Source of the DNA: Candidatus Sumerlaeota bacterium
Lineage (GTDB): Bacteria > Sumerlaeota > Sumerlaeia > JAFGJS01
DNA: 64,000 bases
NCBI GenBank assembly: GCA_016928995.1
Contig: JAFGJS010000037.1
Coordinates: forward strand, 5,895-69,894
Direction: 5' to 3'
A program made the position numbers and the translations under genes. Positions 24,531 through 55,497 of this stretch are shown piece by piece. How positions within the stretch are numbered: the first letter of the stretch is position 1; every line of letters begins with the position of its first letter. The notes beneath the pieces are model-generated. The model saw nothing but the letters and a program-made list of their open reading frames with translations. It searched no databases and was not told the origin of the DNA.

Positions 24531-25157
24531 ATGGCACATCAACTCCCTGCTTTACCATACGCATATGACGCGCTGGAGCCGCATATCGACGCGCGCACCG
24601 TGGAAATCCATCACGATAAGCATCACAATGCTTACGTGACGAACTTGAATGCTGCGCTGGAAGGCCATCCTGAGTTGCAGGATAAACCCCTTACCGAACT
24701 GCTGTCGGATTTGTCAGCCGTGCCGGAGTCGATCCGCATGGCGGTGCGCAACAATGGCGGCGGCGTATGGAATCACAATCTGTATTGGCAATGCATGTCT
24801 GGCGACGGCGGCGGCGAGCCGACCGGCGAGCTGGCCGGGGCGATTAAGCGCGACCTGGGCGGTTTCGCGGCGTTCAAGGAGCAATTCACCAAGGCGGGGG
24901 CTACGCGCTTCGGCTCGGGCTGGGCCTGGCTGTGCGTCGGCGGCGCCGGTAAACTGTGCGTCTGCTCCACGCCGAACCAGGATATTCCGATCATGAAGGG
25001 CGTGGCGGATTGCCCCGGAACTCCGATCCTGACGATGGACGTCTGGGAGCACTCCTACTACCTCAAATATCAGAACCGCCGGCCGGATTACATCGCGGCG
25101 TTTTTCAATGTGATTAACTGGAGCCAGGTGGCGGATCATTACGCAGCTGCGAAGTAA
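24531..25157 (+). CDS. Fe/Mn superoxide dismutase.
   Basis: [28 protein letters not shown] ... GWAWL ... CSTPNQD ... DVWEHSYYL. Confidence 0.9.
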
Positions 25158-25298
25158 GCGCTGTTGATTTTCTGCTTTCATGCAACTCAAGCGGCCGGAT
25201 GGCGTCGAAAGAAAAGACGCCGCCGGTCGCTTTTCTTTTTGACCCTTCGGCCGGATGCGGCGTATGAGATGGTAATCCGGAAAGATCGGAGCTTCCCC

Positions 25299-25862
25299 AT
25301 GAATCATGAAGAGCATCACGGCAGTCCGGCCGATTCAGCCCGGCCGCAGTTAAGCGCGGAGGACGGAGAGCGTGTGCAACTGGGCATCCGTTGCGCGCAG
25401 CAGATCAAAACCTATGGCAACTGGCTGAATTGGCTCGCGGGATTGATTGTGCTGTATGTCTTGTTCCTCAAAACGGCAGGATTTTATTTCCCGGTGGGGC
25501 GCACATACATTCCCAATTACCTGCATCAAGTTTTGATGCAGAGCAATCCTGGCGTGAGCGATGACTCGCTGGCGTTGATCTTGATTCTGGGATTGGCGGC
25601 GGTTTTTTTCATGCTGGGCCAGCTCGCCGTGCGCACGCTGAAACTCGCCTGGCTTTGCCTTGCGCTGGGTTTTCTGATTTACGGCGCCGATCTTGCGGCG
25701 CTGTACTGGCTTCATTTCATGAAGAACAATCACTATTTAGATCTGGTGATCGGCATCGAAGCGGCGTTTCATTTGTTTGTGCTGGCGATGTTCGCGCTGG
25801 GAGTTATCGCGGGTTTGCGTTACAACGCCGTGGCGCGCAAAGAGATGTTTGCTCAGTATTGA
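25299..25862 (+). CDS. Hypothetical 4-TM membrane protein.
   Basis: Hydrophobic helices after a His-rich N-terminus. The start was chosen at MNHEEHH inside track ORF 25164..25862. Confidence 0.5.
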   Translation: MNHEEHHGSPADSARPQLSAEDGERVQLGIRCAQQIKTYGNWLNWLAGLIVLYVLFLKTAGFYFPVGRTYIPNYLHQVLMQSNPGVSDDSLALILILGLAAVFFMLGQLAVRTLKLAWLCLALGFLIYGADLAALYWLHFMKNNHYLDLVIGIEAAFHLFVLAMFALGVIAGLRYNAVARKEMFAQY

Positions 25863-25904
25863 ATTGGTTTTGGATTTCGAATATCACTGCTAGAATTTAA
25901 TCCT

Positions 25905-27056
25905 ATGCTGGAATCGCTAAAATTTTCCCGGCGGCAATTGGGCGAACTCGACTGGCTGATGCTGCTTTGCGTGCTGGGGCTGACGTGGATTGGCTTGTTC
26001 ACGATTGACGGTTCGCTGTTTCCGGTTGAGGCGGACCGGGCGGAGGCGGCCGGCGCGGAGATCCCGCTCGTGGCGTCGCTGGCGGCGAAGCAGTTCGTAT
26101 TTTGGATTCTCAGCCTGGGCGCGTTGATCGCCGCTGTTGTGATTGATTATCGCGTGCTGAAGAAAATCGCCTGGCTGCTGTACATCGTCGGCATCGCGGC
26201 GCTCGTTTTTCTGCTGATCCGGCAGGAGACGATCAAAGGCGCTTCATCGTGGTTTAAACTCGGGCCGCTGCGCTTGCAGCCGTCTGAGTTCGTAAAGATT
26301 TCGACGGTGGCCGCGCTGGCGCTGTGGCTGTCCAAGCGTCCGGGGGAGACCAAGGGCTGGGCGCAATTGATCGTTCCCATGTTGATCGCCGGCGTGCCAT
26401 TCGTCTTGATCTACGAGCAACCGGACATCGGCACGGCGGCGATATTCCTTCCCGTGACGTTTGCAATGGTCTGGGCCGCCGGTCTGCGCAAGCGCTATGT
26501 GCTGGCGGCTGCGGTGGCTTTCATGCTGGCCGCGATTGTGATCTATCCTCGCCTCAAGGAATACCAGAAGCAGCGCATCGAGGTGTTCCTGAATCCCGAG
26601 GCGGATCCGCAGCATGCGGGCTACAATATCATTCAGGCGCAGATCACGATTGGATCGGGGCAGCTCTTCGGCAAGGGCTGGCGCGAGGGGACGCAATCGC
26701 GCTGGGAGTATCTGCCGGAGAACCATACGGACTTTATTTTTTGCAGCCTCGTGGAGCAGTTCGGCTTTGTGGGCGCTGCGGTTGTCTTGGGATTGTACTT
26801 GGCGATCCTGCTGCGCGCATTGGCCATCGCGCAGACATCAGCGGAGTGGTTCGGCTCGTATCTGACGATCGGTTTGGTTGCGATCATCCTCACGCATATC
26901 CTGCTGAACGTGGGGATGGTGCTGCGTATTTTTCCCGTGACGGGGCTGCCGTTGCCATTCTTGAGCTACGGCGGTTCGTTTTTATTGGCGAATTATATCG
27001 TATTTGGCTTGATTCTGAATGTCGGCATCCGAAAAGAGTACTATGATTATACATAA
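25905..27056 (+). CDS. SEDS-family peptidoglycan glycosyltransferase (RodA/FtsW/SpoVE family).
   Basis: 10-TM protein with the conserved periplasmic loop (AGYNIIQAQITIGSGQLFGKG ... PENHTDFIF ... FGFVG). Confidence 0.85.
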   Translation: MLESLKFSRRQLGELDWLMLLCVLGLTWIGLFTIDGSLFPVEADRAEAAGAEIPLVASLAAKQFVFWILSLGALIAAVVIDYRVLKKIAWLLYIVGIAALVFLLIRQETIKGASSWFKLGPLRLQPSEFVKISTVAALALWLSKRPGETKGWAQLIVPMLIAGVPFVLIYEQPDIGTAAIFLPVTFAMVWAAGLRKRYVLAAAVAFMLAAIVIYPRLKEYQKQRIEVFLNPEADPQHAGYNIIQAQITIGSGQLFGKGWREGTQSRWEYLPENHTDFIFCSLVEQFGFVGAAVVLGLYLAILLRALAIAQTSAEWFGSYLTIGLVAIILTHILLNVGMVLRIFPVTGLPLPFLSYGGSFLLANYIVFGLILNVGIRKEYYDYT

Positions 27057-27238
27057 GTCGCATCAGCTGATGATGGATTCCGGGCGGATGCAATGATATG
27101 CTTTTTTTATGCTTGGTTCGTTTTAGTATTTTAGATCCATTCAGGATTGACTTTTGCTTGTCCGGATCACACAATGAATGATCTATCGCTTTAGGGATGA
27201 ATCGCACGACTTAATCAAATAAAGGAACGGAGAGTCAC

Positions 27239-27793
27239 ATGATGAACATCACTCGCAAACTCACCTGCGGCCTGCTTCTGATGATTTTTGCCGCCGTTTT
27301 CATGACGGCATGCAACGACAAAGGCCAAACCCAACGTCAGCAAAAAGAGCAGATCATCACGGAGATGGACGCCAAACTCGATGCCATTATCAAGTCTTAC
27401 AGTGCGATCGAGGCCGAACTGAGCGCTACGAATGCGCAGATCAACAGCCTGCAAAGCAAGGTCAACAACATGAAGGTCTTGATGACGGAGTATCAGGATC
27501 TGAAGCAGCAATTGACCGGCGAGACCGTGGATCTGGGCGCTGCGGCTCCGGCGGAAGCGGCTCCCAGCGCGCGCGGCTCCGTGCCGGTTAAAGCCGTGCT
27601 CGGGATTGTGCTCGCCATTTTCATCATTGTCGTGCTGCTGCTGTTCTACGTGCAGGCCAAGACGGAGCGGATGCGCGAGTGGGATGAGGAAGACGACGAC
27701 GACAGCGAAATTTACAATGCGGACGACGAAGAGGAGAAGACCGAGGAGAAGACGAAGGAATCGAAGCCGAAGGATGAAAAGAAGGACGAATAA
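27239..27793 (+). CDS. Hypothetical lipoprotein with a coiled-coil, a C-terminal TM helix and an acidic tail.
   Basis: Lipobox-like LLMIFAAVFMTAC, a heptad-like central region, hydrophobic VLGIVLAIFIIVVLLLF, then D/E/K-rich low complexity. Confidence 0.55.
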   Translation: MMNITRKLTCGLLLMIFAAVFMTACNDKGQTQRQQKEQIITEMDAKLDAIIKSYSAIEAELSATNAQINSLQSKVNNMKVLMTEYQDLKQQLTGETVDLGAAAPAEAAPSARGSVPVKAVLGIVLAIFIIVVLLLFYVQAKTERMREWDEEDDDDSEIYNADDEEEKTEEKTKESKPKDEKKDE

Positions 27794-27984
27794 CCGGCGC
27801 GTCTGTATCATTCTGGAATCAAAACCGCCGCTGGATCGTTGCGTTTCCAGCGGCGGTTTCAATGTTGGGATGGGATTGGGATCAATGCATCTCTTAAAAT
27901 TACATCCGCATCCTTTAAATGCGGCACAGCCGCCCTCGGCTGTGTTCTTTTTCCATTCGGACATAACTTAAGAGACGCGATAAG

Positions 27985-28010
27985 ATTAGGATTAGGATTA
28001 AGATTTATTG
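27985..28010. repeat. Heptamer microsatellite GATTAGG/GATTAAG x3-4 immediately upstream of the heptosyltransferase start codon.
   Basis: GATAAGATTAGGATTAGGATTAAGATT is seen directly. Its reverse-complement relative lies at 8955-8985. Confidence 0.5.
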
Positions 28011-28012
28011 AT

Positions 28013-29050
28013 ATGGGCTCCAGTATTTTCATTAAAAGCGTGAATTGGATCGGCGATGCGATCATGACGACGCCGGCGATCCGGCGGTTGCGGCGGGAGT
28101 ATCCGGCGGCGCGAATCGTCGTCGCCGCGCGGCCGTGGGTTGCGCCGGTGCTCGATGACAATCCGGACATCAATGAAGTCTGGATCGAGCAGCCGGAAAA
28201 TGGACGGGGCGCGCGCAAGACGCTGCTAAGCCGGCTGCGCGAAGAGCCGTTCGAACTGGGCATCGCCTTCCCGAATTCCTTCGGTTCGGCGTGGCTGCTC
28301 AAGCAGGGCGGCGTACGGCAGCGCATCGGCTATGCGCGCGACCTGCGCGCATGGCTGCTCACGGACGCGGTGAAATGCACAAAGGCGATCCGTCGCGTGC
28401 ACGAGGTGCATTATTATCGCAACCTGCTGCGCGTGCTGATGGAGATCGACGACGAGGGCGACAAACCTCAACTTGTGCTGCCCGTGAATCTTGATGCGGC
28501 GCGCAAGGTGGACCAGGCGTTGCGCGATGAGGGCATGGAAGGGGATGAGCCGCTGATCGGCGTGAATCCCGGCGCGTTTTTTGGTTCGGCGAAGCGCTGG
28601 CTGCCGGAGCGGTTCGCCGCAGCGGCGGATGCGCTGGCCGGAAGGCTGGACGGGCGGATCGTGATCACCGGCGCGCCGAACGAGCGGGAGACAGGCGAGG
28701 CGATCCGGGCGCTGTGCACAAGGCCAGCGATTAATTTAGCCGGGCGGTTGAACCTGAAAGGCGCCGTGGCGTTGATCGGACGCCTGCGCGTGATGTTGAC
28801 CAATGATTCGGGCGCGATGCACATCGGCGCGGCGCTAGGCGTGCCGATGGTCGCCATTTTCGGCTCCACGGATTGGCGCACGACGTATCCCTACAGCGAT
28901 GCGGCGCGGATTGTGCGCAGGGACACGCCCTGCGCGCCGTGCATGCTGCGCGAATGCCCCATCGACCATCGCTGCATGAAGGACGTATCCGTGGACGATG
29001 TGTTGACTGCGGCCGAGGAATTATTAGCAGCTGTTTCTATGGGGCGATGA
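28013..29050 (+). CDS. ADP-heptose:LPS heptosyltransferase (glycosyltransferase family 9, WaaF/WaaC-like).
   Basis: N-terminal KSVNWIGDAIMTTPAIRRL, a C-terminal nucleotide-sugar binding region and GSTDWRTTYP. Confidence 0.8.
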   Translation: MGSSIFIKSVNWIGDAIMTTPAIRRLRREYPAARIVVAARPWVAPVLDDNPDINEVWIEQPENGRGARKTLLSRLREEPFELGIAFPNSFGSAWLLKQGGVRQRIGYARDLRAWLLTDAVKCTKAIRRVHEVHYYRNLLRVLMEIDDEGDKPQLVLPVNLDAARKVDQALRDEGMEGDEPLIGVNPGAFFGSAKRWLPERFAAAADALAGRLDGRIVITGAPNERETGEAIRALCTRPAINLAGRLNLKGAVALIGRLRVMLTNDSGAMHIGAALGVPMVAIFGSTDWRTTYPYSDAARIVRRDTPCAPCMLRECPIDHRCMKDVSVDDVLTAAEELLAAVSMGR

Positions 29051-29510
29051 GGCTTTCCCCTTCCGATCTTTTCTCCACTAAATTCTCCGGCGTGTAGGGC
29101 TTGACTGTGAATTTCAATTTCGACAGGTCGATCTGGGCGCAGTCCAGGTTGATCGTCAGGTCCGTCCGCAGCGTCCTGCTGTTTTGCGAAATGCTGAAAC
29201 TGACTTTGGCATCCTCAATATGCGCAAAGCACACATTGACATCCAGGCGCGCCTCGTCTGTGAGAGTTTCGATCGCCTTGCCGATGGCCTTTACGGATCC
29301 ACAATATTGCTGAGTGGAGAATTCATTGACAAAGATCCCTTTCTTAAAGGCCGCTTCTTTGGAGTTCAGGAATTCAACCGTGGCCCTGATGCCTTCTTCT
29401 GTCGCACCCGGTCCGGGCGCGATGCTTGGCTCCATCGATCCGCTCGCCGGCCAGACATGTATCGTCCCGCATACGGCAAGCGCAGTAAACAATGCCAGGC
29501 TGCGTTTCAT
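29037..29510 (-). CDS. Secreted hypothetical protein (157 aa).
   Basis: Signal peptide MKRSLALFTALAVCGTIHVWPASG. It lies immediately downstream of htrA on the same strand. Confidence 0.5.
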   Translation of the reverse strand: MKRSLALFTALAVCGTIHVWPASGSMEPSIAPGPGATEEGIRATVEFLNSKEAAFKKGIFVNEFSTQQYCGSVKAIGKAIETLTDEARLDVNVCFAHIEDAKVSFSISQNSRTLRTDLTINLDCAQIDLSKLKFTVKPYTPENLVEKRSEGESLIAP

Positions 29511-29524
29511 GATTCATCCTCCGA

Positions 29525-30958
29525 TTATGGATTTTGCTGGAGTGTGATAATGATCCAGCCGTTGCTCGAACGAAGTTTAAGCAGCAAAGGCTTGCCTGCT
29601 TCCGCGGCGGCTACGGCTTGCTGAAAGTCATCCACGCTTTCAACCGGCTGGCGATTGACTTCCTGCAGCAGCATGTTCAGCCGCACGCCAGCGCGCCAGG
29701 CCGCGCCGTCCCGGTCGATTTCCACCACGCGCAAGCCGTTCATCCCGCCATAGCCGAGTTTGCTGGCGGCGCGGATGGTCAGCGGACGCGCCGTGATGCC
29801 GAAACCCAAATCCGCATCGTCCACCTCGCCGCTGTCGTAGATTTTAATTTCCGGCGGAAGCTCGCTGTCTTTTTTGCCATCGTCGGTTTTTTCCGGCCGC
29901 TGGCCCAGTTTGAATCTGGCGGTCGAGCGTTCGCCGTCGCGCCAGAACTCGAAGACCGTCTCCACGCCGGCGCCCGCCAGCGCGGCGGCTGAGCGGACTT
30001 CCTCCTTATCCGTCGCGGGTTGTCCGTTGAACTCGGTGATGATGTCGTAGGGCTGCAAATGCCCGTCGGCCGGAGAGCCGGGCGCGACGAAGTTGACGAT
30101 CACGCCCTGTTCCGTCTTGACTCCGAGCCAATCGGCGACGCCTTTGCGCAAGTCGCTGATGGAAATGCCCATGTAGCCGCGCATCACCTTGCCGCTTTCG
30201 CGCAGCTGCTCCGCGATGCGCATCGCGTCGTTGATCGGGATGGCGAAATTCAAACCCTGGCTGCCGCCGGACGAGCTGAGGATGAAAGTATTGACGCCGA
30301 TCGCCTCGCCGCGCGAGTTGATCAGCGGGCCGCCGCTGTTGCCCTGATTGATCGACGTGTCGGTCTGCAGGAACTTGCCGTATTCCGTCACCTGCATGCC
30401 CTTGCGGTTCACGGCGCTGATGATGCCCAGCGTCACGGTTTGATCCAAGCCCTGTGGGCTGCCGATGGCGATGGCGAAGTGGCCGGGCTTGACGGCGGAC
30501 GAATCGCCGATGGGCAGCACGGCGAAGGGAGTGCGCGATTCGATTTTCAGCACGGCGACCTCAGTGGCCGGATCGGAGCCGAGGAGTTCCGCTTCGTATT
30601 CCGCGCCGTTCTTGAAGACGATGTCGATTTCATCCATGCCCGCGATCACGTGGCTGTTGGTGACGATGACGCCGTTGGGATCGACCACGAAGCCGCTGCC
30701 GATGGCGGATTTCGGCTGATCGGAGCCGGGGCCGGGCATCGGCCGCAGCCGGCTGCGCTCGCTGTCGCCGCTCTTGCCGCGCGCCTTGATCTGCACCACA
30801 GCCGTTTGAGCCTGCTCCACGATCTGGGCGACTTCAGTCTCAAGTTGTTGCATCAGGCTGGCCGCGGCTGGCGCCTCCTGCGCTTCCATCTGTTGCGAAG
30901 GATAAGCGATGATGAGTGTGATGAAGATGGTGATGGCGAGGATTGACTTGTCAGCCAT
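29525..30958 (-). CDS. Periplasmic serine endoprotease, DegP/HtrA family (trypsin-like domain plus PDZ domains).
   Basis: Catalytic-triad context (TNSHV ... GNSGGPLINSRGEAIGVNT) followed by two PDZ-like regions. Confidence 0.9.
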   Translation of the reverse strand: MADKSILAITIFITLIIAYPSQQMEAQEAPAAASLMQQLETEVAQIVEQAQTAVVQIKARGKSGDSERSRLRPMPGPGSDQPKSAIGSGFVVDPNGVIVTNSHVIAGMDEIDIVFKNGAEYEAELLGSDPATEVAVLKIESRTPFAVLPIGDSSAVKPGHFAIAIGSPQGLDQTVTLGIISAVNRKGMQVTEYGKFLQTDTSINQGNSGGPLINSRGEAIGVNTFILSSSGGSQGLNFAIPINDAMRIAEQLRESGKVMRGYMGISISDLRKGVADWLGVKTEQGVIVNFVAPGSPADGHLQPYDIITEFNGQPATDKEEVRSAAALAGAGVETVFEFWRDGERSTARFKLGQRPEKTDDGKKDSELPPEIKIYDSGEVDDADLGFGITARPLTIRAASKLGYGGMNGLRVVEIDRDGAAWRAGVRLNMLLQEVNRQPVESVDDFQQAVAAAEAGKPLLLKLRSSNGWIIITLQQNP

Positions 30959-31314
30959 TGTGATTCTCCCGAACTCTGGCGAATTATTTCCGGTCTATAT
31001 GCGAATCTAAAGCATAGCGGAACAATGCAGAAAAAGGCAAGGGCAAGAACGCGTTATTCGGATCCGGTTAATGTTCAGACGCGATCCACGCAAGAATCTT
31101 ATGGATTATATACAATGTATGCGTTAGCGTGGTAATTAACGTTTTTTGCGTGGGGCTATGCAGGAAATGTGAACCTTGCCTCTCATCATTGCTTTATGCG
31201 CATCCATTGTCGAGATTAAGTCGTTATTTTTCAGATAAATAGGACAGGATTGAGTTCCACGGAGACGGCGCCGTTTTTGCATCGGTTTATGGCATCTCTA
31301 TCAAATGATGCGGA

Positions 31315-34300
31315 TTGGAGCGGATCATGGACGAGTCGATGGATGCCCGGAAGCTGGATGCGCTGTTGCGGCGGATCGATGGGCTGGATGACGAACTGCG
31401 GCGGATGAAATTTCGCCTGGAGCGTATTGAACAACAGCGGGAACCGGCGCCGCGCGAGGAGGACGGCGTTGTCGCGCCATCGAAGCCCGGAGAAGCAGCG
31501 GTAGACCTTGCCGTACAAAGTCCCGATGATTCTGATGAGAAATCCGGAACGCCAACCGCATCTCAGACTCCGCTGCCTCCGCCTTTGCCTGCCATATCGA
31601 TTCCCCTCGTATTGGATTCAAGCGAGCGGTCCATGACGTTGGAGGAGGTGTTGCTCGAGCGCCAAGCGAAACGCGGGCCGATCGAGGCGGGCGAACCGGA
31701 AGTCGCGCCGCTGACACCGGAGAGTCAAGCGAGCAAGCCAATGACAGAGTATGAGCCGGCGATTGGCCTGGAGCATCCGCTGCATCAGTTTAGCGTGAAA
31801 GAGAAGCCGTTTGGCTCGCGGTTTTATGAATGGTGCGTCAAGCAATGTCCGCCGCTCAAGCCCCTGCTCGACTGGTTCGTGCCGGCTGAAGGCGAGCATT
31901 TCAGCATCGATGAGATCCTGGTGCGTGTGTTCGCCGTGGTCGGCGTGATGGCGGCGGTGATCGCGGGCGGATACTTTTCCACGCTGGTGCACAACCGGAT
32001 TCCGCCGATCGGCAAGGTGGGCCTGATGTACGCGGCTGCGGCGGGCATGTTCGTCACGGGTTGGCGCATGAGCGAGCAATTGCGCAAGCTGGCGCGGCCG
32101 ATGATGGCGGGAGGCGTGGCGATCTTTTATTTCACCTCGTACGCCGCGCATTTCATCGAGGCGACCCACGCGTTCAATCTCCCCGTTTCGCTGACGCTGA
32201 TGACGGTCGCGTTGGTTGGGATGATCGCGCTGGCGGAGCGCTTGCGCAGCGAGATGCTCGCGATTTTCACCGTTTTTCTGGGTTACCTGACGGCGTACGT
32301 GAGCGGCTCGTCGGAGTATGCGCTGATCGCCAACGGTTCTATCGCCATCGCCGCGATGGTCTTCCTGATGCGCAACGGTTGGGCGCGGCTGTCCGAGATT
32401 TCGGTGATCGGCACGTATGTCTTCCACCTGGTCTGGATGTTCTTCTGGGATCATCCACCAACTACGCCGCAGCAGGCGTTTTTGCTGAACATGGGCACGC
32501 TGCTGGGCTACTTTGTGGTTCACCTGTTCGGCGCGATGACAGCGGATGCGGCGCGCGGCGGGATCGAGCCGTGGAAGACCCGGCGTTTGCTCTACCTGGC
32601 GTGGAACGCGATGATCTTCTGGTCCGTGTCGCTGATCGTGTTCCAGGAGACGCGCATCTATCTTGACCATACGGAATGGCTGCATTTCGCGCTGGCGGCG
32701 GTGTTGTTGCTCAGCGCGGCATGGTACCGGCGGATCAGCGAAGATGCGTTTCAACTGCTGCTGGGGCTGAGCCTGACGCTGGCGACCATCGGCGTGATGA
32801 CGGCGTGCTCGGGGAACGTGCTGTACCTGGCGCTGATGGCGGAAGGCGCCGCGCTGCTCTTCGTGGGCAAGCGCGCGAAGTTGAGCCAGGGGCGCTACGG
32901 CGGCGTGATCGTGTTGCTGATCGCGGCGGGATCGTTGCTGGCGCATCAATTCACGCACGTGGAACACACGCAAAGAGTCTTCATCAATTGGCGCGATCCG
33001 CATTGTTGGGCGGCGCTGTTCGGCTGCGTCACGCTGGCCGGTTTGGGCGGATGGTATCAATGGCTGTATGGGCTCCGCAAAACGCATCAGCCGGAAGAAT
33101 CCATCGCACTGGACAGTGAGGATCAATCTTCCTCGTTCTCGTTCTCGTCCTCGTTCTCGAACCAAGAGCAACGTCCAGCGGTTGATGACGAAAGTTTGCC
33201 ATTCATTTCCACTTCCATGATTTCGCGCCTGCTGATCTATCTCTCCGTGCCCCTGTTCATGATTGTGTCGTTCATCTATGGAGAAGTTCACGTGATGACT
33301 TGGCTGCCGTTGATCGGACTGGCGTTTCTCCTCGCGGGAATCGCGCTGCGCCATCCGCCGTATCTGGTTTCCAGTTTGGGCGTGCTGGCGCTGCATGGAT
33401 TGGCCGGCTTGATTCTGATCAACGCCGATCCAGGCGAGCTGTTGATAAAAGAGCAAATCGCCGGGATCGCGCTGGTGTTGGCTTGCGGCGCGCTGTGCGA
33501 GTGGCGGCTGCGCGATGTGACGCGGCTCTACCTGCTGCGGCTGGTGGACCGGCTGGCGTATCTGCCGATGTTCTCCTTCGCCGCGTTGAGCTGCGCGTTG
33601 ATGCTGGAGCAGCTCGAGCCGCATTGGTGCGTGGGTTCGCTGGCGATCTTTCTGGCGGCGCTGCTGGGCGTTGGATGGGGCGCGCGATGCCGCTCGCTGA
33701 CGGATGCGGCTATCGTGCCGTTCGCGGTGTTGTCGTTGCGGATTATGTACGAGATCTATCACTTCAGGACAGGTTCGATGGCGCTGGTTGGTTTTCAGGT
33801 CAGCCACGGCGCGGCGCTACTGATGCTGTTCGCCGCGACGCACTTCACCGAGCAGCCGTTCGTGCGTGAGCGCCTGCGCGGCGCAATGATGGCCGCGCAA
33901 TGGATCGCCGCGCTGCTGGTCTGCGCGCCGGCGGCCGTCGGGATTGTTTATTTCACGGAGAGCTTTGCAGCGGTGCAAGGCGTGATTCTCGCCGCCGCGT
34001 GCGGAGCGGTTCTGGCTTTGTTCATGGGCTGGCGGAGGTCGATTCCGCTTTCTCTGGCGGGCTGGCTCTGGCTGGCCTATGGGCATGCGCTGTATCAACT
34101 CCGGCTGAGCAACGACGCCTTTGCGCCCGAACCGGGCCAGCCGATTGTCATCTGTCTGGCCGCGCTGTTAGCGATCACCATCGCTGTCGAGCGCACGTCC
34201 GGTATGGGGCTGGCGAAATGGATCGAGCAGGCGCCGGAAGCGGAGACGCCCCAACAAATTCAACGCTTCCTGAATTGGGCCTTGGGCGGAGCGATTGCGA

Positions 34301-34599
34301 TTGCGCTGCTGCACGGACTATACGCCCACCCAGCTCTGCATCCGGCGTTTGTCACGGTCAGCTGGACGCTCTCCGGACTGGCGCTTTGTCTGCTTGGGGC
34401 GTTATTGCGCGTGCGGCTATATCCGCGAGCCGGATTCGCCCTGCTGCTCTGCGCGATCTTCCGCGCTTTCATCGTAGACGTGACGCAGCTCGAGCAGACG
34501 CTCCATCGTATGATCGCCTTTCTCGTGCTCGGCGTGATTCTGATGGGCGTGAGTTACGGCTACATGAAACTCAAATCCCGCATCGACGCCTGGCGCTGA
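31315..34599 (+). CDS. Large polytopic membrane protein (1094 aa, DUF2339-like) with an N-terminal coiled-coil; the true start is possibly at 31327.
   Basis: More than 20 predicted TM helices. The N-terminal RRIDGLDDELRRMKFRLERIE is a heptad. An in-frame SSFSFSSSFS insert is encoded by the (CGTTCT)n array. Confidence 0.6.
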   Translation: MERIMDESMDARKLDALLRRIDGLDDELRRMKFRLERIEQQREPAPREEDGVVAPSKPGEAAVDLAVQSPDDSDEKSGTPTASQTPLPPPLPAISIPLVLDSSERSMTLEEVLLERQAKRGPIEAGEPEVAPLTPESQASKPMTEYEPAIGLEHPLHQFSVKEKPFGSRFYEWCVKQCPPLKPLLDWFVPAEGEHFSIDEILVRVFAVVGVMAAVIAGGYFSTLVHNRIPPIGKVGLMYAAAAGMFVTGWRMSEQLRKLARPMMAGGVAIFYFTSYAAHFIEATHAFNLPVSLTLMTVALVGMIALAERLRSEMLAIFTVFLGYLTAYVSGSSEYALIANGSIAIAAMVFLMRNGWARLSEISVIGTYVFHLVWMFFWDHPPTTPQQAFLLNMGTLLGYFVVHLFGAMTADAARGGIEPWKTRRLLYLAWNAMIFWSVSLIVFQETRIYLDHTEWLHFALAAVLLLSAAWYRRISEDAFQLLLGLSLTLATIGVMTACSGNVLYLALMAEGAALLFVGKRAKLSQGRYGGVIVLLIAAGSLLAHQFTHVEHTQRVFINWRDPHCWAALFGCVTLAGLGGWYQWLYGLRKTHQPEESIALDSEDQSSSFSFSSSFSNQEQRPAVDDESLPFISTSMISRLLIYLSVPLFMIVSFIYGEVHVMTWLPLIGLAFLLAGIALRHPPYLVSSLGVLALHGLAGLILINADPGELLIKEQIAGIALVLACGALCEWRLRDVTRLYLLRLVDRLAYLPMFSFAALSCALMLEQLEPHWCVGSLAIFLAALLGVGWGARCRSLTDAAIVPFAVLSLRIMYEIYHFRTGSMALVGFQVSHGAALLMLFAATHFTEQPFVRERLRGAMMAAQWIAALLVCAPAAVGIVYFTESFAAVQGVILAAACGAVLALFMGWRRSIPLSLAGWLWLAYGHALYQLRLSNDAFAPEPGQPIVICLAALLAITIAVERTSGMGLAKWIEQAPEAETPQQIQRFLNWALGGAIAIALLHGLYAHPALHPAFVTVSWTLSGLALCLLGALLRVRLYPRAGFALLLCAIFRAFIVDVTQLEQTLHRMIAFLVLGVILMGVSYGYMKLKSRIDAWR

Positions 34600-34689
34600 G
34601 CGGTGATCGAATGCCTTGACATGGATGGATCATTATGATTTGTTATGTGAAAAAAGGGGACTTCCGAGGCAATGCCAGCTTATACGTTA

Positions 34690-34750
34690 TTGATCGCGCA
34701 GAGACGCAGAGGATTACAATAACATCAAATCTCTGCGTCTCCGCGTGAAA
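34690..34750. promoter_or_regulatory. Long hairpin (about 12-bp perfect stem GAGACGCAGAG with a 19-nt AT-rich loop) at the left edge of the low-GC islet.
   Basis: GCGCAGAGACGCAGAGG attacaataacatcaaat CTCTGCGTCTCCGCG, with no T-run after it. Confidence 0.4.
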
Positions 34751-34837
34751 GAAATATTCTATCGGGAAAACGAGTGTGGAGGAACTGCGGAGTATTAAGC
34801 GTTTTTCAATAGTAATTTGAAAGGCAAAGGAAATGAC

Positions 34838-35611
34838 ATGAGAAAAAAAACGATTATACTTATCCTCATTCTGATGGGATCGTTATCCGCATACGCGGAA
34901 GACATGCAGAAGTATTTGAGAGATACACAGGTTTTGGCTCGGCAAGGGAAGCACCAGGAAGCTCTTGAACGGTATATCTGGTTTCATAACCATGCCCTTG
35001 AGCATGAACCGGCCGCCATGTATGGAGTGCGCCTGTCGTTTGCCCTGGAATACTGGAGGCAACTTGGCGAGGTCTATCCTCCTGCGTTAGCCGCGCTGAA
35101 GAAGACGAGAGACGACAAAACAGAGCTAATGGAAAAAGGGAAGGGCAATCGTGAGTTATTTCATGACGTCCTGGCCCTTAACCGAACGCTGAATAATAGC
35201 CGCAAGACAGTCGATCTGTTTCAAAAACTCGATCAGGAACAGGAAGAGTTGGCGAAGCAATGCTGGGATATCGCCGAAGAAACAGTAATTGATGCGAAAG
35301 AGTATGAACTTGCAGGAAAGTATATCGGAGATCCAATACGCGCATTTGACAAAGTAAAAGAGACATATGACGAAATGAAAGCGATGGATGATGAAGAAAG
35401 CATGGGGGTGGAATTTAAAACATTCTATCAGAATAGCTTTGTCGAGGACGCGTTGCGATTGATCAAAGTGTCGCTGGCGCTGGATAACGCAGAGGCCGCC
35501 AGAAAAGTACAAGCGAAGGCATTGGCCGTTCTTGACGACAAGCGCCTCCATGACTGCGTGCCTAAACAGACAAAGGAAGAGGCGCAGCAGAAGGATTCAT
35601 CGGACAAGTAA
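34838..35611 (+). CDS. Secreted alpha-helical hypothetical protein in a low-GC context.
   Basis: Signal peptide MRKKTIILILILMGSLSAYA. The body is K/E-rich and helical, and the GC content is visibly lower than the flanks. Confidence 0.55.
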   Translation: MRKKTIILILILMGSLSAYAEDMQKYLRDTQVLARQGKHQEALERYIWFHNHALEHEPAAMYGVRLSFALEYWRQLGEVYPPALAALKKTRDDKTELMEKGKGNRELFHDVLALNRTLNNSRKTVDLFQKLDQEQEELAKQCWDIAEETVIDAKEYELAGKYIGDPIRAFDKVKETYDEMKAMDDEESMGVEFKTFYQNSFVEDALRLIKVSLALDNAEAARKVQAKALAVLDDKRLHDCVPKQTKEEAQQKDSSDK

Positions 35612-35628
35612 AAAAATCAGAAAGGAAC

Positions 35629-36300
35629 ATGATGAAACCTGCAATCACATCGGAAGCCGTCGTTCAAACATTGGAGAAACTATACGCCGATGCAGCGACA
35701 AAGCATCATTTTCCTAGAACTAAGAAGGAAAATTCCCCCATCGACCATACGGATGAAAAAGCGTTCTACAAATCCATGAGCCACGCTTACATGGCGGTGA
35801 ACCGCGAATTCGGCAACCTGCTTTATGCTCTCGCTCGCGCGTCCAGGGCGACAACGGTTGTCGAGTTTGGTACATCATTCGGCATATCGACCATTTATCT
35901 GGCCGCCGCCGTTAAAGACAATGGCGGCGGGAAAGTGGTCAGCACCGAATTCATCCCGGAAAAGGCGGAACAGGCGAAGCGGAATCTCGCGGAGGCCGGA
36001 TTGGCGGAATTCGTGGAAATCCGCGTGGGTGATGCGCTGGAAACGCTGAAAAACAATCCCGTGCAAAGTATCGATTTTGTCATGCTCGACGGCGCCAAGA
36101 GCCTTTACTTTGATGTGTTCAAAATTCTTGAGCCTGCGATGAAATCGGGGGCCATCATCGCCAGCGATAACACCGACAGCCCGGACCTGCAAAACTTTCT
36201 GGATTATGTGCGCTTTCCTGAAAACGGCTACATCACTTCCCCCATTTCCACGCACGGAGGACCGGGAGGAAGAGGACATGAAATCACGGTTAAAATCTAG
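35629..36300 (+). CDS. Class I SAM-dependent O-methyltransferase (family 3, caffeoyl-CoA OMT-like).
   Basis: VVEFGTSFGISTIYLAAAV ... VSTEFIPEKAEQAKRNLAEAGL ... FVMLDGAKSLY matches the fold. The gene is low-GC. Confidence 0.8.
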   Translation: MMKPAITSEAVVQTLEKLYADAATKHHFPRTKKENSPIDHTDEKAFYKSMSHAYMAVNREFGNLLYALARASRATTVVEFGTSFGISTIYLAAAVKDNGGGKVVSTEFIPEKAEQAKRNLAEAGLAEFVEIRVGDALETLKNNPVQSIDFVMLDGAKSLYFDVFKILEPAMKSGAIIASDNTDSPDLQNFLDYVRFPENGYITSPISTHGGPGGRGHEITVKI

Positions 36301-36329
36301 TGTCATGTCACGCTTGAAAAGTCGTTATG

Positions 36330-36402
36330 TAGGGTGGGCCTTGGCCCACCATGTTGTTTGAATTGCCGCACATCTTGGTGGGCCAAGGCCCCCCCTACAT
36401 CT
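36330..36402. repeat. Nested palindrome: a 23-bp inverted repeat whose arms are themselves palindromes (GGTGGGCCTTGGCCCACC / GGTGGGCCAAGGCCCCCC); REP/BIME-like or a bidirectional terminator.
   Basis: TGTAGGGTGGGCCTTGGCCCACC, a 26-nt spacer, then GGTGGGCCAAGGCCCCCCCTACA. The first hairpin is followed by ATGTTGTTTG, so it is plausibly the terminator of the O-methyltransferase gene. Confidence 0.5.
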
Positions 36403-36511
36403 TTGTGCATCCCTTTTCATCTGCGAACTTCCGTCACCGGCTGTCATGATTTTTGCGGGGCAAAAATCCCGCCAGCCTTGGGTTGTTTTGTGCGTTCACC
36501 CAGGCCGGCGC

Positions 36512-36780
36512 TCACGGCCGCTTTGCGGCCTACGCTCTGGCCTGGGCTGTGATGCATAGCGCTTTCAGCGCTGATATGGAGCCATGATTAAAGAGATTTG
36601 AAATCGTGATTACATCCAGAGCGTAACGTTCGGTCGTTTTGTGGCGTTTTGCGTTCGTTGCAGTGAACCAAACCGACAACCGCGTTGCGAAACGCGCCGC
36701 TGGCGCCTTTCGCTGCTCTGGTCTGGGCTGAATTACGCAGCGCTTTCAGAGCTGATAAGAAGCCATGAGTAAAGAGATGA
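36512..36780 (+). repeat. Two copies of a roughly 65-nt direct repeat (about 80% identical) in a hairpin-rich non-coding stretch.
   Basis: Copy 1 (about 36531-36595): GCTCTGGCCTGGGCTGTGATGCATAGCGCTTTCAGCGCTGATATGGAGCCATGATTAAAGAGAT. Copy 2 (about 36715-36778): GCTCTGGTCTGGGCTGAATTACGCAGCGCTTTCAGAGCTGATAAGAAGCCATGAGTAAAGAGAT. Extra hairpins lie at 36448 (9-bp stem), 36515 and 36672 (GCGA tetraloop). Confidence 0.5.
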
Positions 36781-36838
36781 CCACCGTGGATGAAATGAAA
36801 TGCGCCCGTTTTTGTGCAAAATCTGAACGCTGGACTTG
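36764..36838 (+). CDS. Speculative 24-aa mini-ORF MSKEMTTVDEMKCARFCAKSERWT (CxxxC), starting inside repeat copy 2.
   Basis: It runs ATG to TGA in frame. The degenerate copy 1 starts the same way but stops after 5 codons. I saw no ribosome-binding site, so confidence is low. Confidence 0.15.
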
Positions 36839-36928
36839 ACCGCGCGGCGCTTCTTGATATATCCTTTTTCTTAGTCTGCAACCACATCGTGGTCTGCGGT
36901 TTTTCAACTTCAGGGCAGGGGTTCCTTT

Positions 36929-38182
36929 GTGCAGGTTGTTGAAGACACGCAAAGCCTGTGGCTGGGAGTGGCCACGCACCTGATGGTCTTTGAGCCGGGT
37001 CCGCGCGGCGAGGTGGCTTATCGTCTGGGCACGCGGCCGGTTGAGCGCGCGTGGCTCGGCGAGGAGTATCACGGGCGGCAGATCCCCGCAATTGTCCAGC
37101 CTTCCTACGCCGCTTTTTTCGATCCGAACGACGATCAGCTGATCGGGCTGTTTTTCGAGCGCGGCGTGGACGATATGTTTGTTTTTTGCGGCCGGCGCTG
37201 GGGCGACGTGGCCGTCGATACGGGCGAGGAGTTTGAGACGGATCGTGCAGCGGACCTGATCCACTCCATGAACACGTCCGTGCTGGTGCATGACGCGCCG
37301 CCGACGGTGAGTATGCGTTTTCTGATGAATATGCATAACATCCGGCACTTCGCGCCGGAGGTCATACGCGCCATTCGCCATTCGAGCCAGCTGAACTACC
37401 TGGAGTTTCGTTGCGAGGCGGCGACGGGGCTGTTCCAGCGTTGCCAGTTGGAGGTGCTGCATAAACACACGCAACATCTGCTCGACACGGCGGAGTTCGA
37501 CGTTTTCCCCGTCATCTGGCCGGTGCGACCGCAGACCGGCGAGGAAATCCGCCGCGCCGCAGCCGCTCGCCGCGCGCCCAAACCGCAGCCCGCCAAACCA
37601 GTCAAACCGCTGACGCCGACGTTGCATCTCGATCCGCTGGAGATGACGCGCGCGATTCACGATGAGCCGGAGCTCAGCCGGCGCTGGCAGATGATCGTGC
37701 AGAACCTGGAGCAGGCCGACGCCGGACGCACCTACCACTTGCTGTCGGATTTCACCCCGTTGATCGCCGGGCATATCAAGGCCTGGCCCGCGCGGCGGTT
37801 GATTAAAATCTTTGGCCAGCAGGCGGGTTTCACGCTAGTCGGCGTGTGTAAGGATCTGACGAATGAAAAAGTGCTGCAATTGGCTGATATCGTGGCGGGA
37901 CGCGAGAGCCTGATCGACTGGCTCGATGAACGCGAGACGGACCGCTTGATGCGGACTGATTTTGACGCGCTGCAACAGCTGACGCCGGATAGCGCGCGCG
38001 AATGGCTGAATGTCTCGCCGGGCTGTTCTTCCGAGTGGATTCGCAAAGTCTGGCGCCGGCTGCTGGCGTTCATCAACGCCGACTTCGGCCGCGGCGGCAG
38101 CGAAAAGGCGATCCATCAGAAGAAGGATAAAATTGCTAAGCGCCTGCTGGCCGCGCGCGACTGCCTGATCCAGGCCGATTGA
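36929..38182 (+). CDS. Hypothetical protein (417 aa) with a Pro/Ala/Lys-rich linker and a C-terminal degenerate J-domain-like segment lacking HPD.
   Basis: The C-terminus (LNVSPGCSSEWIRKVWRRLLAFINADFGRGGSEKAIHQKKDKIAKRLLAARDCL) has J-domain helix II/III spacing, but HPD is replaced by NAD. Confidence 0.5.
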   Translation: MQVVEDTQSLWLGVATHLMVFEPGPRGEVAYRLGTRPVERAWLGEEYHGRQIPAIVQPSYAAFFDPNDDQLIGLFFERGVDDMFVFCGRRWGDVAVDTGEEFETDRAADLIHSMNTSVLVHDAPPTVSMRFLMNMHNIRHFAPEVIRAIRHSSQLNYLEFRCEAATGLFQRCQLEVLHKHTQHLLDTAEFDVFPVIWPVRPQTGEEIRRAAAARRAPKPQPAKPVKPLTPTLHLDPLEMTRAIHDEPELSRRWQMIVQNLEQADAGRTYHLLSDFTPLIAGHIKAWPARRLIKIFGQQAGFTLVGVCKDLTNEKVLQLADIVAGRESLIDWLDERETDRLMRTDFDALQQLTPDSAREWLNVSPGCSSEWIRKVWRRLLAFINADFGRGGSEKAIHQKKDKIAKRLLAARDCLIQAD

Positions 38183-38194
38183 AAAAAGTAGATT

Positions 38195-39631
38195 TCAGTT
38201 TTCTTGTTCAATCACGCGCATACCGCGCCAGGGGCCGCGGATGAAGCGCAGGAAGAAGCAAAAACCGAGCGTCACGACGTTCAGCGCAAGAAACAGCCAC
38301 ACCATATAAAGCCCGCCAATTTCGAAGTGGATCACGCAGTACGTCGGCGTGACGAGCAACAACCAGCCGCAAACCAGCGACGTGTTCATCACAAAGCGCG
38401 TATCGCCCGCGCCCTTCAGCGCCGAAGAAAAAATGATATTCAGCGTGTCGAACAGCGAATAGACCGCCACGTAGCGCAGCAGGATGATCGCGAGCGGTTT
38501 GATTTGCTCGAAATGCAAGATCTCCTCCGGGTCCGCCGGACGGAAGGGAAGGATGAACAGCAGCGGAACCAAAACATACGCCACGGAGATCGCCGCCATG
38601 TATGAGAAAGTCATATGCAGCGCCGACCATGTGGCTTTGTCCGCCAGATCCGGCCGATTCGCGCCGAGTCCGCGTCCGACCAAGGTCGAGGTGGCGATGC
38701 CGAAGCCGACCATCGGCAAAAACGCCAGCATGTTGATTTGCATCGCCATGTTGGTCGAGGCCAGTTCCAGCCGTCCCAGCCTGCCGATCAGCGCGATGAA
38801 CAGCGCAAAGGAGGAGATATCGAGCGTGAATTGCACCCCGCTGGGCAAGCCGAAACGCAGCAGTCGAATCAACAAGGCTGTATCCAGTCGCCATGTGCGC
38901 AGCGTGCTGTACTTTTCGCGATAGTGCCGCGTCGCCGTCAGCGCGGCGTAAAGGCATGTCTGGAAAATGACAGAGGAGACCGTGGCCCAGGCGGCGCCCT
39001 TCAAGCCGAGTTCCGGCGCGCCGAATTTACCGAAAACAAAAATCCAGGTCAGCAGGACGTTCGCCGCGGTCGAGGCCACGTTGCAATATAGCGGGATCAT
39101 CGGCTTGTTCACGCCGGTGAAGAATCCCGAGAGCGCGCCGTTCGCCACGACGAAACCGCCGCCAAGCAGGGCGATGCGAAAATATTCCGTCTCCAGTTTC
39201 ACCAACTGCGCGTCATGTCCGATCCGTTCGAATAAAATGCCGGCGAAGGGGATGAACGCCAGCATGGCCAGGCCGGAGAAAATGGAAAAATATATCGATT
39301 GCCAAAGCGATACTCCGATCCGGTCGTAGCGCTTTGCGCCGAAATACTGCGAGACGAACGTGTTGACGTAGCCGCCCGTGCCAAGGAAGAAACTGATCAC
39401 GGAGAAGGAGAGAATGCCGGCTGGAAATGCGGCGGTGAATTCATCCGTGGAATGCCAGTTCAGGAACATGCGGTCGACGAAATGCTGCACGGAAATCGAG
39501 CCTGTGCTGATCACCAGCGGCCAGGCCAGCGTAAGCACTTCGCGATAGCCCGACGCCGCGTTCCAGCGTTCGCGCAGGGCTTGCCGCGCGCCAGAGGCTC
39601 CGCGACGTTTGATGTTGTCCGCCGGTTCCAT
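38195..39631 (-). CDS. MATE-family (MOP superfamily) transporter.
   Basis: 12 TM helices, the NorM-like N-terminus (LTLAWPLVISTGSISVQHFVDRMFL) and internal duplication. Confidence 0.85.
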   Translation of the reverse strand: MEPADNIKRRGASGARQALRERWNAASGYREVLTLAWPLVISTGSISVQHFVDRMFLNWHSTDEFTAAFPAGILSFSVISFFLGTGGYVNTFVSQYFGAKRYDRIGVSLWQSIYFSIFSGLAMLAFIPFAGILFERIGHDAQLVKLETEYFRIALLGGGFVVANGALSGFFTGVNKPMIPLYCNVASTAANVLLTWIFVFGKFGAPELGLKGAAWATVSSVIFQTCLYAALTATRHYREKYSTLRTWRLDTALLIRLLRFGLPSGVQFTLDISSFALFIALIGRLGRLELASTNMAMQINMLAFLPMVGFGIATSTLVGRGLGANRPDLADKATWSALHMTFSYMAAISVAYVLVPLLFILPFRPADPEEILHFEQIKPLAIILLRYVAVYSLFDTLNIIFSSALKGAGDTRFVMNTSLVCGWLLLVTPTYCVIHFEIGGLYMVWLFLALNVVTLGFCFFLRFIRGPWRGMRVIEQEN

Positions 39632-47002: not shown

Positions 47003-47049
47003 TACGTTGCGCAAAGCGATGGTGAAATAAATCAGGGGCGCTCGCTAAC

Positions 47050-47090
47050 GAACGCCCCTGATTGTTTTATGGCGAAATTTCACGAAATGC
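47050..47090. terminator. Bidirectional Rho-independent terminator between convergent jag and trmB.
   Basis: 8-bp stem CAGGGGCG/CGCCCCTG with a 12-nt loop, followed by ATTGTTTTAT. It is also T-rich on the other strand. Confidence 0.6.
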
Positions 47091-55310: not shown

Positions 55311-55497
55311 CCGAAATTGGGCGAATTACGAAGATTTACTTTTCTTCTTCCGCCGATTTTTCCGAGTGTTTTTCCAATAAAGTTTTGGTGTTGTCACAGG
55401 CGGCTTTCACCGAGGCATGATTGTTCATGCAACGGCGTCTATCGTCAGCGGTTGTCCGTTTCCACAGGTAGGATCGGGCTAAGCGTTTTCTTATCAG

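Follow-up and report, generated by a model that had tools for sequence, protein, structure and literature searches.

The most AT-rich segment of the Candidatus Sumerlaeota DNA analysed here, a stretch of 64,000 nucleotides hereafter called the window, holds two genes bracketed by a strong hairpin and a nested palindrome. The question this locus raises is whether genes and palindromes together make up a horizontally acquired cassette, with products that share a function and ends that mark its borders, or whether they are separate elements. Our analysis favours the second answer: the locus probably consists of two unrelated accessory genes, likely expressed as one transcription unit, followed by a doublet of repetitive extragenic palindromes (REPs). 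The three ideas that a preliminary description of this DNA had bundled together are now separate, in that the REP identity of the downstream palindrome holds, horizontal acquisition is plausible and the proposed functional link between the genes does not stand up. The main features are as follows.

34694..34748, no strand assigned: upstream hairpin, its 18-nt arms pairing at 16 positions around an AT-rich loop of 19 nt, -29.9 kcal/mol, z -6.4
34838..35611, + strand: orfA, encoding a predicted exported TPR-like protein of 257 aa, helical throughout, from an uncharacterised family (signal peptide, AlphaFold model)
35629..36300, + strand: OMT, encoding a 223-aa class I SAM-dependent, catechol-OMT-like O-methyltransferase (family 3; PF01596, PF13578)
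36327..36400, no strand assigned: REP doublet (HH dimer, REPIN-like) with GTAG heads outside, a 26-nt spacer and 31-nt arms
36329..36350, + strand: REP unit 1, GTAGGGTGGGCCTTGGCCCACC, a GTAG head and then a 7-8 bp GC stem
36377..36398, - strand: REP unit 2, inverted, GTAGGGGGGGCCTTGGCCCACC, with one mismatch relative to unit 1
36929-38182, + strand: next gene, 417 aa

The composition of the segment was compared with that of the rest of the window (window-wide GC 0.568, or ~0.57). The most AT-rich 2 kb lies at 34501-36500, where GC falls to 0.49, the lowest of 125 bins. As had been noticed earlier, both genes are AT-richer than their flanks: orfA has a GC of 0.474 (GC3 0.535), the lowest GC among 56 candidate ORFs, and OMT one of 0.515 (GC3 0.603), the seventh-lowest, versus 0.61-0.62 in the flanking genes, namely 0.613 (GC3 0.772) in the DUF2339 gene upstream of orfA and 0.620 (GC3 0.770) in the downstream gene at 36929-38182. 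At second codon positions the GC of orfA is 0.31, and K, E, D and N are abundant in its product. The expectation that windowed GC and codon usage would both deviate was borne out for the former, and Karlin's dinucleotide delta* ranked the bins at 35001 and 35501 third and fourth of 125 (those at 34001 and 34501 only 35th and 36th), but not for the latter: Karlin codon bias B was 0.38 for orfA and 0.30 for OMT against a median of 0.32, neither being an outlier. By its GC, its GC3 (0.53 versus 0.77 in the neighbours) and the delta* of two bins, the segment is unlike its host in composition, as a genomic island would be. Window positions 24903-36466, palindrome included, recur without any difference in an independently made Logan assembly (L001). 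Comparable AT-richness occurs elsewhere in the window, at 3184-3702, 11600-12541 and 55498-63065; the Na_Ca_ex gene at 11600-12541 is clearly cellular.

The two gene calls of the preliminary description, a secreted alpha-helical protein and a family-3 O-methyltransferase, proved right. The orfA product begins with a Sec-type signal peptide (MRKKTIILILILMGSLSAYA|ED), and its AlphaFold model is made of helix pairs throughout (pLDDT 89). No match was found in Pfam (TPR included), NCBIfam or PHROG, and the best PDB matches of the model in Foldseek were generic TPR proteins, with weak scores (E > 1e-3, TM 0.25-0.4). This is likely an exported helical-repeat (TPR-like) protein with a putative binding role. 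An identical protein is present in NCBI (JXA32_03350, labelled Ca. Sumerlaeota), and the 341 homologues retrieved, all at 65% identity or less, come from across phyla and define 23 invariant residues. Of 130 GTDB loci where an orfA homologue occurs, the best 80 come from ~10 phyla, with no Sumerlaeota among them; no conserved neighbour of the homologues was found. With orfA, a large and strongly conserved family of predicted exported proteins comes into view, undescribed in any domain database, and drawing attention to such an uncharacterised family is of modest value in itself.

OMT, the start of which was placed at 35632 by the gene caller, matched PF01596 (Methyltransf_3) at E 2e-16 and PF13578 at E 4e-16; its Methyltransf_3 score of 60.2 bits compares with a curated cut-off of 22. 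Family-3 and catechol OMTs in the PDB matched it at E 1e-14 to 1e-7 (family-3, 3.5e-14), and PADLOC and PHROGs returned generic methyltransferase matches and nothing more. The enzyme is likely a small-molecule methyltransferase of the catechol type that works in the cytoplasm and depends on a metal. Its best non-self homologues, at 58-60% identity, belong to Verrucomicrobiota and Bdellovibrio, and its relatives sit in MarR-OMT-MFS operons, in one locus (L209) with an integrase and an ISL3 transposase alongside.

Because OMT starts only 17 nt after orfA, the two genes are probably co-transcribed. The further proposal of a joint action of the two gene products found no support: an OMT adjoins an orfA homologue in none of 86 other loci (with one weak exception, at 28% identity), and neither the varied neighbourhoods of the orfA homologues nor the operon setting of the OMT relatives recalls the pairing seen here. 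The locus is no functional cassette, and whatever the origin of orfA and OMT, they did not come as a conserved pair with one function.

Since the composition of the segment differs from that of its neighbours and both families are scattered across phyla, we infer, with moderate support, that orfA and/or OMT were probably acquired horizontally. Other features of genomic islands were looked for and not found: the annotated neighbouring genes include no integrase or transposase, no direct repeats border the AT-rich segment, and the only tRNA of the window lies at 55236, with none at the borders. On the upstream side, a search of 5.8 billion proteins for relatives of the DUF2339 product yielded none above 30% identity, GTDB genomes gave no match, and the genomic context of the nearest homologue is unrelated. 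The strongest alternative is a native origin of the genes with vertical inheritance: a low GC would follow from amino-acid content and weak codon selection, and the hairpins would be of the ordinary kind found at gene ends, with a REP among them by chance. The unremarkable codon bias of both genes fits this explanation, and so do the GC3 values of 0.57-0.60 in several clearly cellular genes (Na_Ca_ex, for example) and the missing mobility genes and border repeats; moreover, the lineage is poorly sampled, so that the missing Sumerlaeota homologue is weak evidence. Nevertheless, amino-acid content leaves the GC3 of orfA unexplained next to that of its neighbours, no other 2 kb of the window is as low in GC, homologues of orfA at 50-65% identity are spread over ~10 phyla with no conserved context, and OMT homologues occur in accessory regions beside mobile elements. 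Taking both sides together, we regard native inheritance as possible but on the whole unlikely.

Both palindromes are real. The upstream hairpin, first placed at 34690-34750, occupies 34694-34748, within the 238-nt AT-rich spacer that separates the DUF2339 stop (34599) from the orfA start, and exceeds chance both in its folding z-score and in its size, as sites with 18-nt arms and at least 16 pairs number 5 in 64 kb versus 0.13 expected from dinucleotide shuffles. No T-run follows it, and the 64-kb window holds no second copy. It is separate from the REP family of the downstream doublet, and would most simply be a transcript-end or 5'-leader structure and no recombination site.

The nested palindrome, first delimited at 36330-36402, spans 36327-36400, and our analysis showed it to be two inverted GTAG-headed REPs arranged as a REPIN-like HH dimer. 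REPs are characterised by a GT(A/G)G head and a GC-rich palindrome (Nunvar 2010, PMC2817692), and each unit carries such a head in front of a GC-rich near-perfect palindrome: unit 1 is made up of GTAG-GGTGGGCC-TT-GGCCCACC and unit 2 of GTAG-GGGGGGCC-TT-GGCCCACC, the latter with one stem mismatch, the general form being GTAGGGNGGGCC(N2-4)GGCCCACC. With a length of 22 nt, a stem of 7-8 bp and a loop of 2-4 nt, the units lie within the ranges listed for GTAG REPs (20-40 bp, stem 5-13, loop 2-20; PMC3733652 Table 1). The doublet is extragenic, lying past the OMT stop at 36300 and ahead of the + strand gene that begins at 36929. Its 31-nt arms are 90% complementary, each with an inner 8-bp palindrome, and can adopt either a single 31-bp hairpin or a pair of small ones. 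The fold energy was -54.5 kcal/mol (z -8.75), nothing in the shuffled sequences equalled the 31-nt arms, and the entire 340-nt spacer folded with a z of -7.6. HH dimers are known to have spacers of 20-100 bp and to be able to fold as a single large stem-loop (Di Nocera 2013, PMC3733652); inverted REPs, a short spacer and one long hairpin are all present here.

Further structures follow in the same intergenic region.

36439..36490, + strand: candidate intrinsic terminator, a GGCTGTCATGATTTTTGC/GCAAAAATCCCGCCAGCC hairpin and then T-rich TTGGGTTGTTTTG, -18 kcal/mol, z only -1.2
36499..36546, no strand assigned: composite hairpin with outer stem CCCAGGCCGG/CTGGCCTGGG, -36.5 kcal/mol, z -5.4
36516..36533, - strand: second, different GTAG-headed unit, GTAGGCCGCAAAGCGGCC, inside the composite hairpin
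36534-36597 and 36715-36778, + strand: local 64-nt direct repeat, 83% identical

The direct repeat (36534..36778) lies in the 628-nt spacer ahead of the next gene, and the Logan contig L001 ends inside the candidate terminator. Rfam gave nothing at gathering score in the region, the sub-threshold hits being generic long-hairpin matches to miRNA precursors. A reading of the palindromes as integron attC sites was also considered and rejected: by inspection, neither has GTTRRRY/RYYYAAC cores, and the annotated neighbourhood contains no integrase.

Repetition at many unrelated sites is a further mark of REPs, and we looked for it in metagenomes with the pattern TAGGGNGGGCCTTGGCCCACC. At least 120 metagenome contigs carried the exact 21-mer with its GTAG head, for the most part as inverted doublets. 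The REP-bearing loci examined contained 238 units in 645 kb, with unrelated flanks, and 76 doublets with GTAG outside, the median spacer of which was 24 nt (26 nt here). In 76% of the 238 units the base before TAGGG is G, and some of the doublets have the H. influenzae REP variant as their other unit. Contigs sharing the 21-nt core range in GC from 0.42 to 0.73, and Rhodanobacteraceae and Planctomycetota loci are among them. The ORFs between REP pairs in these loci are ordinary genes, e.g. for a glycosyltransferase and a patatin-like protein; no REP was found beside OMT homologues, and no relative of the window organism closer than 61% identity, in one protein, was found among the REP-bearing loci. 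The dispersed REP-like family that had been suspected thus exists across metagenomes but not locally, the 64-kb window having no second copy of the doublet and just one different GTAG hairpin besides. A single doublet per 64 kb is compatible with REP membership, because H. influenzae has only ~21 REP copies in 1.8 Mb (Nunvar 2010, PMC2817692).

From the literature on this repeat class, REP doublets would be spread by a REP-associated tyrosine transposase (RAYT). A motif regex for HUH...YxxxNP, which is a weak test, found no RAYT in the window or in the fetched loci, and the genes flanking the doublet had no match to Y1_Tnp (PF01797). REPIN populations have been described as lineage-specific and mostly vertically inherited, and in this respect the REP studied here differs, its identical 21-nt core being common to contigs of differing GC and phyla. 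If shared by at least three phyla, that core with the GTAG head would point to a REP/RAYT lineage able to cross from one phylum to another, or to one conserved far beyond the lineage-specific picture, a speculation that we put forward as rather improbable. It is conceivable that the lone doublet came in along with the AT-rich genes, and it could then mark the donor lineage. To our knowledge, REPs have so far been undescribed in the candidate phylum Sumerlaeota. That the GTAG type known from Haemophilus is widespread in soil and sediment metagenomes, and reaches a candidate phylum, is of modest value, and these findings leave current understanding unchallenged.

Two other explanations of the palindromes have to be weighed against the REP reading. 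In one, the hairpin and the nested palindrome would be the ends, i.e. the recombination sites, of a mobile cassette, integron-attC-like or MITE-bounded; two of the five strongest hairpins in the 64 kb do bracket exactly the AT-rich segment, but they have no sequence in common, there is no target-site duplication or border direct repeat, the annotated neighbours are without integrase or transposase, the orfA-OMT pair is found nowhere else, and the family of the downstream element occurs alone in the intergenic regions of many genomes, all of which makes this explanation very improbable. The other, that the nested palindrome is a strong or bidirectional intrinsic terminator with no relation to REP elements, we consider highly unlikely too: although unit 1 is recovered by a terminator scan (7-bp stem, 6 GC pairs, tail ATGTTGTTTG) and is positioned close behind a stop codon, no - strand gene converges on the palindrome, and the exact 21-mer, unpaired GTAG head included, recurs as inverted doublets in those at least 120 unrelated contigs. 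We know of no terminators that recur as identical inverted doublets in unrelated contigs. The convergent terminator pair that had been offered as an alternative to a repeat element is discarded, because the genes on both sides lie on the + strand.

Terminator action is, on the other hand, compatible with REP identity. As a REP doublet behind a gene, the element would place stable hairpins where the transcript ends, and these, judging from work on this repeat class, may stop transcription or shield the mRNA from 3' exonucleases. Unit 1 is well placed for such a 3'-end role on an orfA-OMT transcript, since it starts 29 nt past the OMT stop and the T-rich ATGTTGTTTG comes after it.

The individual elements can also be compared with known systems. 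OMT shares with the cation-dependent class I OMTs of the Methyltransf_3 family (catechol, caffeoyl-CoA and YrrM-like enzymes) a domain scoring above the curated cut-off and, by inspection, the SAM motif VVEFGTSFG and D...D-N metal-binding positions (LDGAK, SDNT); unlike its closest relatives, it stands behind a secreted TPR-like gene and outside the MarR-OMT-MFS context. With regard to the downstream spacer, the earlier likening of the palindrome to REP/BIME-type elements is kept for the GTAG-headed doublet but not for BIMEs. The spacer resembles the BIME clusters of Enterobacteria in having several palindromic units within one long intergenic region (the doublet, the nested GTAG unit and the 64-nt repeat), yet it consists of one homodimer and, 118 nt on, a different GTAG unit, i.e. 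two GTAG sequence types, with no regular alternation and no repeated or conserved inter-REP motif. The likeness to REPINs (Bertels and Rainey 2011, PMC3116915) and HH dimers (PMC3733652) extends to the inverted REPs, the outside position of GTAG, the 26-nt spacer and the extragenic location. There is also a close likeness to the RAYT-associated REPs of Haemophilus, which read GTAGGGTGGGCTTcAGCCCACC in H. influenzae (GTAGGGTGGGCTTCAGCCCACC in strain Rd) and GTAGGGTGGGTCTTGACCCACC in H. parasuis (Nunvar 2010, PMC2817692): these and the unit described here are all 22 nt long, with a GTAG head and a GGTGGG...CCCACC stem, and are nearly identical, the 2-4 apical bases alone being different, whereas the host is in this case a Ca. 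Sumerlaeota MAG and no gammaproteobacterium.

The hairpin, the AT-rich gene pair and the nested palindrome are real and well beyond chance, and the most striking of these features, the nested palindrome, belongs to a known repeat class. An independent Logan assembly (L001, from run SRR13394437) was identical base for base to window 24903-36466, and an exact match to the product of orfA was found at NCBI (JXA32_03350, on a 71-kb contig of a "Candidatus Sumerlaeota bacterium" MAG). The genes are arranged as follows.

29525-30958, - strand: HtrA-type protease
31315-34599, + strand: DUF2339 membrane protein
34838-35611, + strand: orfA, exported TPR-like protein
35629-36300, + strand: OMT, family-3 O-methyltransferase
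Between OMT and the next gene: spacer of 628 nt
36929-38182, + strand: 417-aa protein without known domain
38195-39631, - strand: MatE transporter

The 417-aa protein, of native composition (GC3 0.77), had no match in Pfam, NCBIfam, PADLOC or PHROGs; its + strand ORF was taken as real, and the - strand ORF as a shadow, because its GC1/2/3 values (0.67/0.42/0.77) are like those of other genes.

The preliminary description held orfA and OMT to be AT-richer than their flanks, and this was borne out by GC contents of 0.474 (orfA) and 0.515 (OMT) against 0.613 and 0.620 in the flanking genes and 0.568 in the whole window, and by GC3 values of 0.53 and 0.60 against 0.77 in both flanking genes. The GC of orfA is the lowest among the 56 candidate ORFs of the window, and 34501-36500 is the lowest-GC bin among 125 two-kb bins. 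The compositional signal is not extreme by every measure: the dinucleotide delta* singled out only two of the islet bins (ranks 3 and 4 of 125, the other two ranking 35 and 36), and the Karlin codon bias of both genes was average for the window. Other AT-rich genes are an ORF6N-domain (KilA-N-like) gene at 3184-3702 (GC 0.474, as AT-rich as orfA, and also found on an independent Logan contig, L213), a Na/Ca exchanger gene at 11600-12541 and four large genes at 55.5-63 kb. A module of two genes, duplicated in tandem on the - strand, directly follows tRNA-Gly(TCC) (55236-55310; together window 55236-63065). Its copies encode a PD40 beta-propeller protein of 513 or 514 aa and a DUF6057 protein of 674 or 683 aa; its GC is ~0.51, compared with 0.60-0.62 in the preceding genes, and it may be a tRNA-adjoining island.

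The orfA protein carries a predicted Sec-type signal peptide, and its homologues align from just past the predicted cleavage site (A|EDMQKY). It had no Pfam, NCBIfam, PHROG or PDB sequence-family match, and its AlphaFold model (pLDDT 89), with helix pairs throughout, showed only a generic resemblance to TPR proteins. The family has more than 340 members at no more than 65% identity, with 23 invariant residues, including W48, H50 and ones within WFHxHALE and GVRLSFAL. In GTDB species genomes 130 loci matched orfA, the best 80 belonging to Syntrophales, Kiritimatiellia, Omnitrophota, Verrucomicrobiota, Planctomycetota, Bacteroidota, Proteobacteria, Acidobacteriota and others, and none to Sumerlaeota. 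No conserved neighbour was found across 86 loci; at one (L004), the homologue lies amid many small unknown ORFs and adjoins a PIN/PhdYeFM toxin-antitoxin pair.

By sequence, OMT is a catechol-OMT-like enzyme (PF01596; PDB matches with E 1e-14), its closest relatives being 58-60% identical and from Verrucomicrobiota and Bdellovibrio. The two homologue contexts inspected were MarR-OMT-small ORF-MFS operons, and none of these partners is present in the window. The closest homologues (loci L209-L212) stand in MarR-OMT-107 aa-MFS operons, and 5-7 kb upstream of the one in L209 there are a phage-type integrase and an ISL3 transposase. Here, co-transcription of orfA and OMT is suggested by their 17-nt spacing and by an RBS in front of OMT. 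The idea that the two act together on a surface or secreted substrate found no backing, since no family-3 OMT adjoins an orfA homologue in the 86 loci, bar one match of 28% identity; a protein with a signal peptide would also have no evident substrate in common with a small-molecule methyltransferase of the cytoplasm. Judged by gene context, the two genes seem to have come together by chance in this genome rather than to form a conserved system; they are an ordinary juxtaposition, probably accessory in nature.

Horizontal acquisition of the segment, for at least orfA, has about an even chance or a little better: the composition of both genes contrasts with that of both neighbours, their families are scattered across phyla at 50-65% identity and OMT homologues occur in an accessory context, but codon bias is average, equally AT-rich genes exist nearby and the segment borders show no mobility gene, tRNA or direct repeat. 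The lack of Sumerlaeota homologues is a weaker argument because the lineage is poorly sampled. The proposed synteny check found no related genome that could show an empty site, as none of 5.8 billion proteins is a homologue of the neighbouring DUF2339 protein at more than 30% identity. That the two genes moved as a bounded cassette is unlikely.

The hairpin before the pair and the palindrome of palindromes behind it were both confirmed, near the coordinates first given. The former (34694-34748) has 16/18 arm bases paired and a fold energy of -29.9 kcal/mol (z -6.4), and the latter (36327-36400) has 31-nt arms, 90% complementary, and -54.5 kcal/mol (z -8.75). Only five hairpins in the 64 kb are at least as good as the smaller of the two, a grade for which dinucleotide shuffles gave an expectation of 0.13. 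The other three are 10278-10363, 19895-19976 and 27822-27859, the first two being intergenic hairpins of ~85 nt with arms of tandem hexamer repeats (ATCGAA/ATCGGG..., TCGTTC...), one upstream of prs and one between divergent genes. The upstream hairpin lacks a GTAG head, has no sequence in common with the downstream element and no second copy in the window or any fetched locus. No T-run follows it, in contrast to clear terminators elsewhere in the window (e.g. 27822-27859 and 47025-47068), and its simplest readings are a 3'-end structure of the DUF2339 transcript or an orfA leader structure.

For the nested palindrome, a convergent terminator pair was discarded because OMT and the 417-aa gene are both on the + strand. 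The suggested resemblance to REP/BIME-type elements was right. Each arm consists of GTAG followed by GGTGGGCC-TT-GGCCCACC, and REPs are defined by a GT(A/G)G head and a GC-rich imperfect palindrome (Nunvar et al. 2010, PMC2817692). Neither arm recurs within the 64 kb, and TAGGGNGGGCCTTGGCCCACC (20 specified bases) matched at least 120 public metagenome contigs, with only a few expected by chance on a rough estimate that assumes the database size. Among the matches listed, 645 kb of contigs with GC from 0.42 to 0.73 held 238 REP units, located between ordinary genes with unrelated flanks; G preceded TAGGG in 76% of them, making the head GTAG, and there were 76 heads-outside doublets (median spacer 24 nt, compared with 26 nt in the window doublet), 20 heads-inside doublets and 6 tandem pairs. 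From arm architecture, metagenome doublets and class definition, the nested palindrome is therefore a REP doublet (REPIN-like). Taxon labels, obtained through 90%-identity protein clusters for two contigs only, were Rhodanobacteraceae (L187) and Planctomycetes/Sedimentisphaerales genomes (L102). In L117, L094 and L145 the repeat extends beyond the unit, with at least 60 nt of identical flanking sequence, and in L152 and L163 it adjoins hairpins of heptamer repeats, e.g. (GAGGGCT)n, recalling the window's hexamer-repeat hairpins. The wider interest is limited to the range of organisms with an identical REP core and to the uncharacterised orfA family.

The 340 nt behind OMT fold far better than shuffles on either strand (z -7.6 and -7.2). 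The REP doublet is followed there, in this order, by the T-tailed hairpin, the composite GTAG hairpin and the first repeat copy listed here.

36439-36490: hairpin with T-rich tail, candidate terminator, Logan contig break point
36516-36533, - strand: second GTAG-headed hairpin, GTAGGCCGCAAAGCGGCC, nested in an outer palindrome
36534-36597 and 36715-36778: 64-nt direct repeat, 83% identical

L001 ends exactly within the palindrome 36439-36477, apparently because the palindrome disrupts the assembly graph; the break is not taken as a sign of a dispersed repeat. Each 64-nt copy includes a small hairpin, AGCGCTTTCAG(C/A)GCT; the second opens a 24-codon ORF (36765-36839, MSKEMTTVDEMKCARFCAKSERWT), the first only a 5-codon ORF. 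A promoter-like site for the 417-aa gene (36836-36865) overlaps the end of the 24-codon ORF and runs on downstream.

This spacer is a BIME-like mosaic, yet its units do not alternate regularly, as they do by definition in BIMEs. The heads-outside arrangement is that of the "HH" dimers of the GTAG superfamily, which have GTAG termini outside and spacers of 20-100 bp and are known from the PVC superphylum (Di Nocera et al. 2013, PMC3733652). No RAYT-like HUH/Y proteins were detected by motif search, a weak test, in the window or fetched loci. The window holds one REP doublet and one different GTAG-headed hairpin 118 nt downstream, a density that is not out of the ordinary for a sparse REP family: the genome of H. 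influenzae has ~21 copies (PMC2817692). RAYT-associated REPs are GTAGGGTGGGCTTcAGCCCACC in H. influenzae and GTAGGGTGGGTCTTGACCCACC in H. parasuis (Nunvar et al. 2010, PMC2817692), and the H. influenzae variant is the partner unit in several metagenome doublets carrying the window's REP type.
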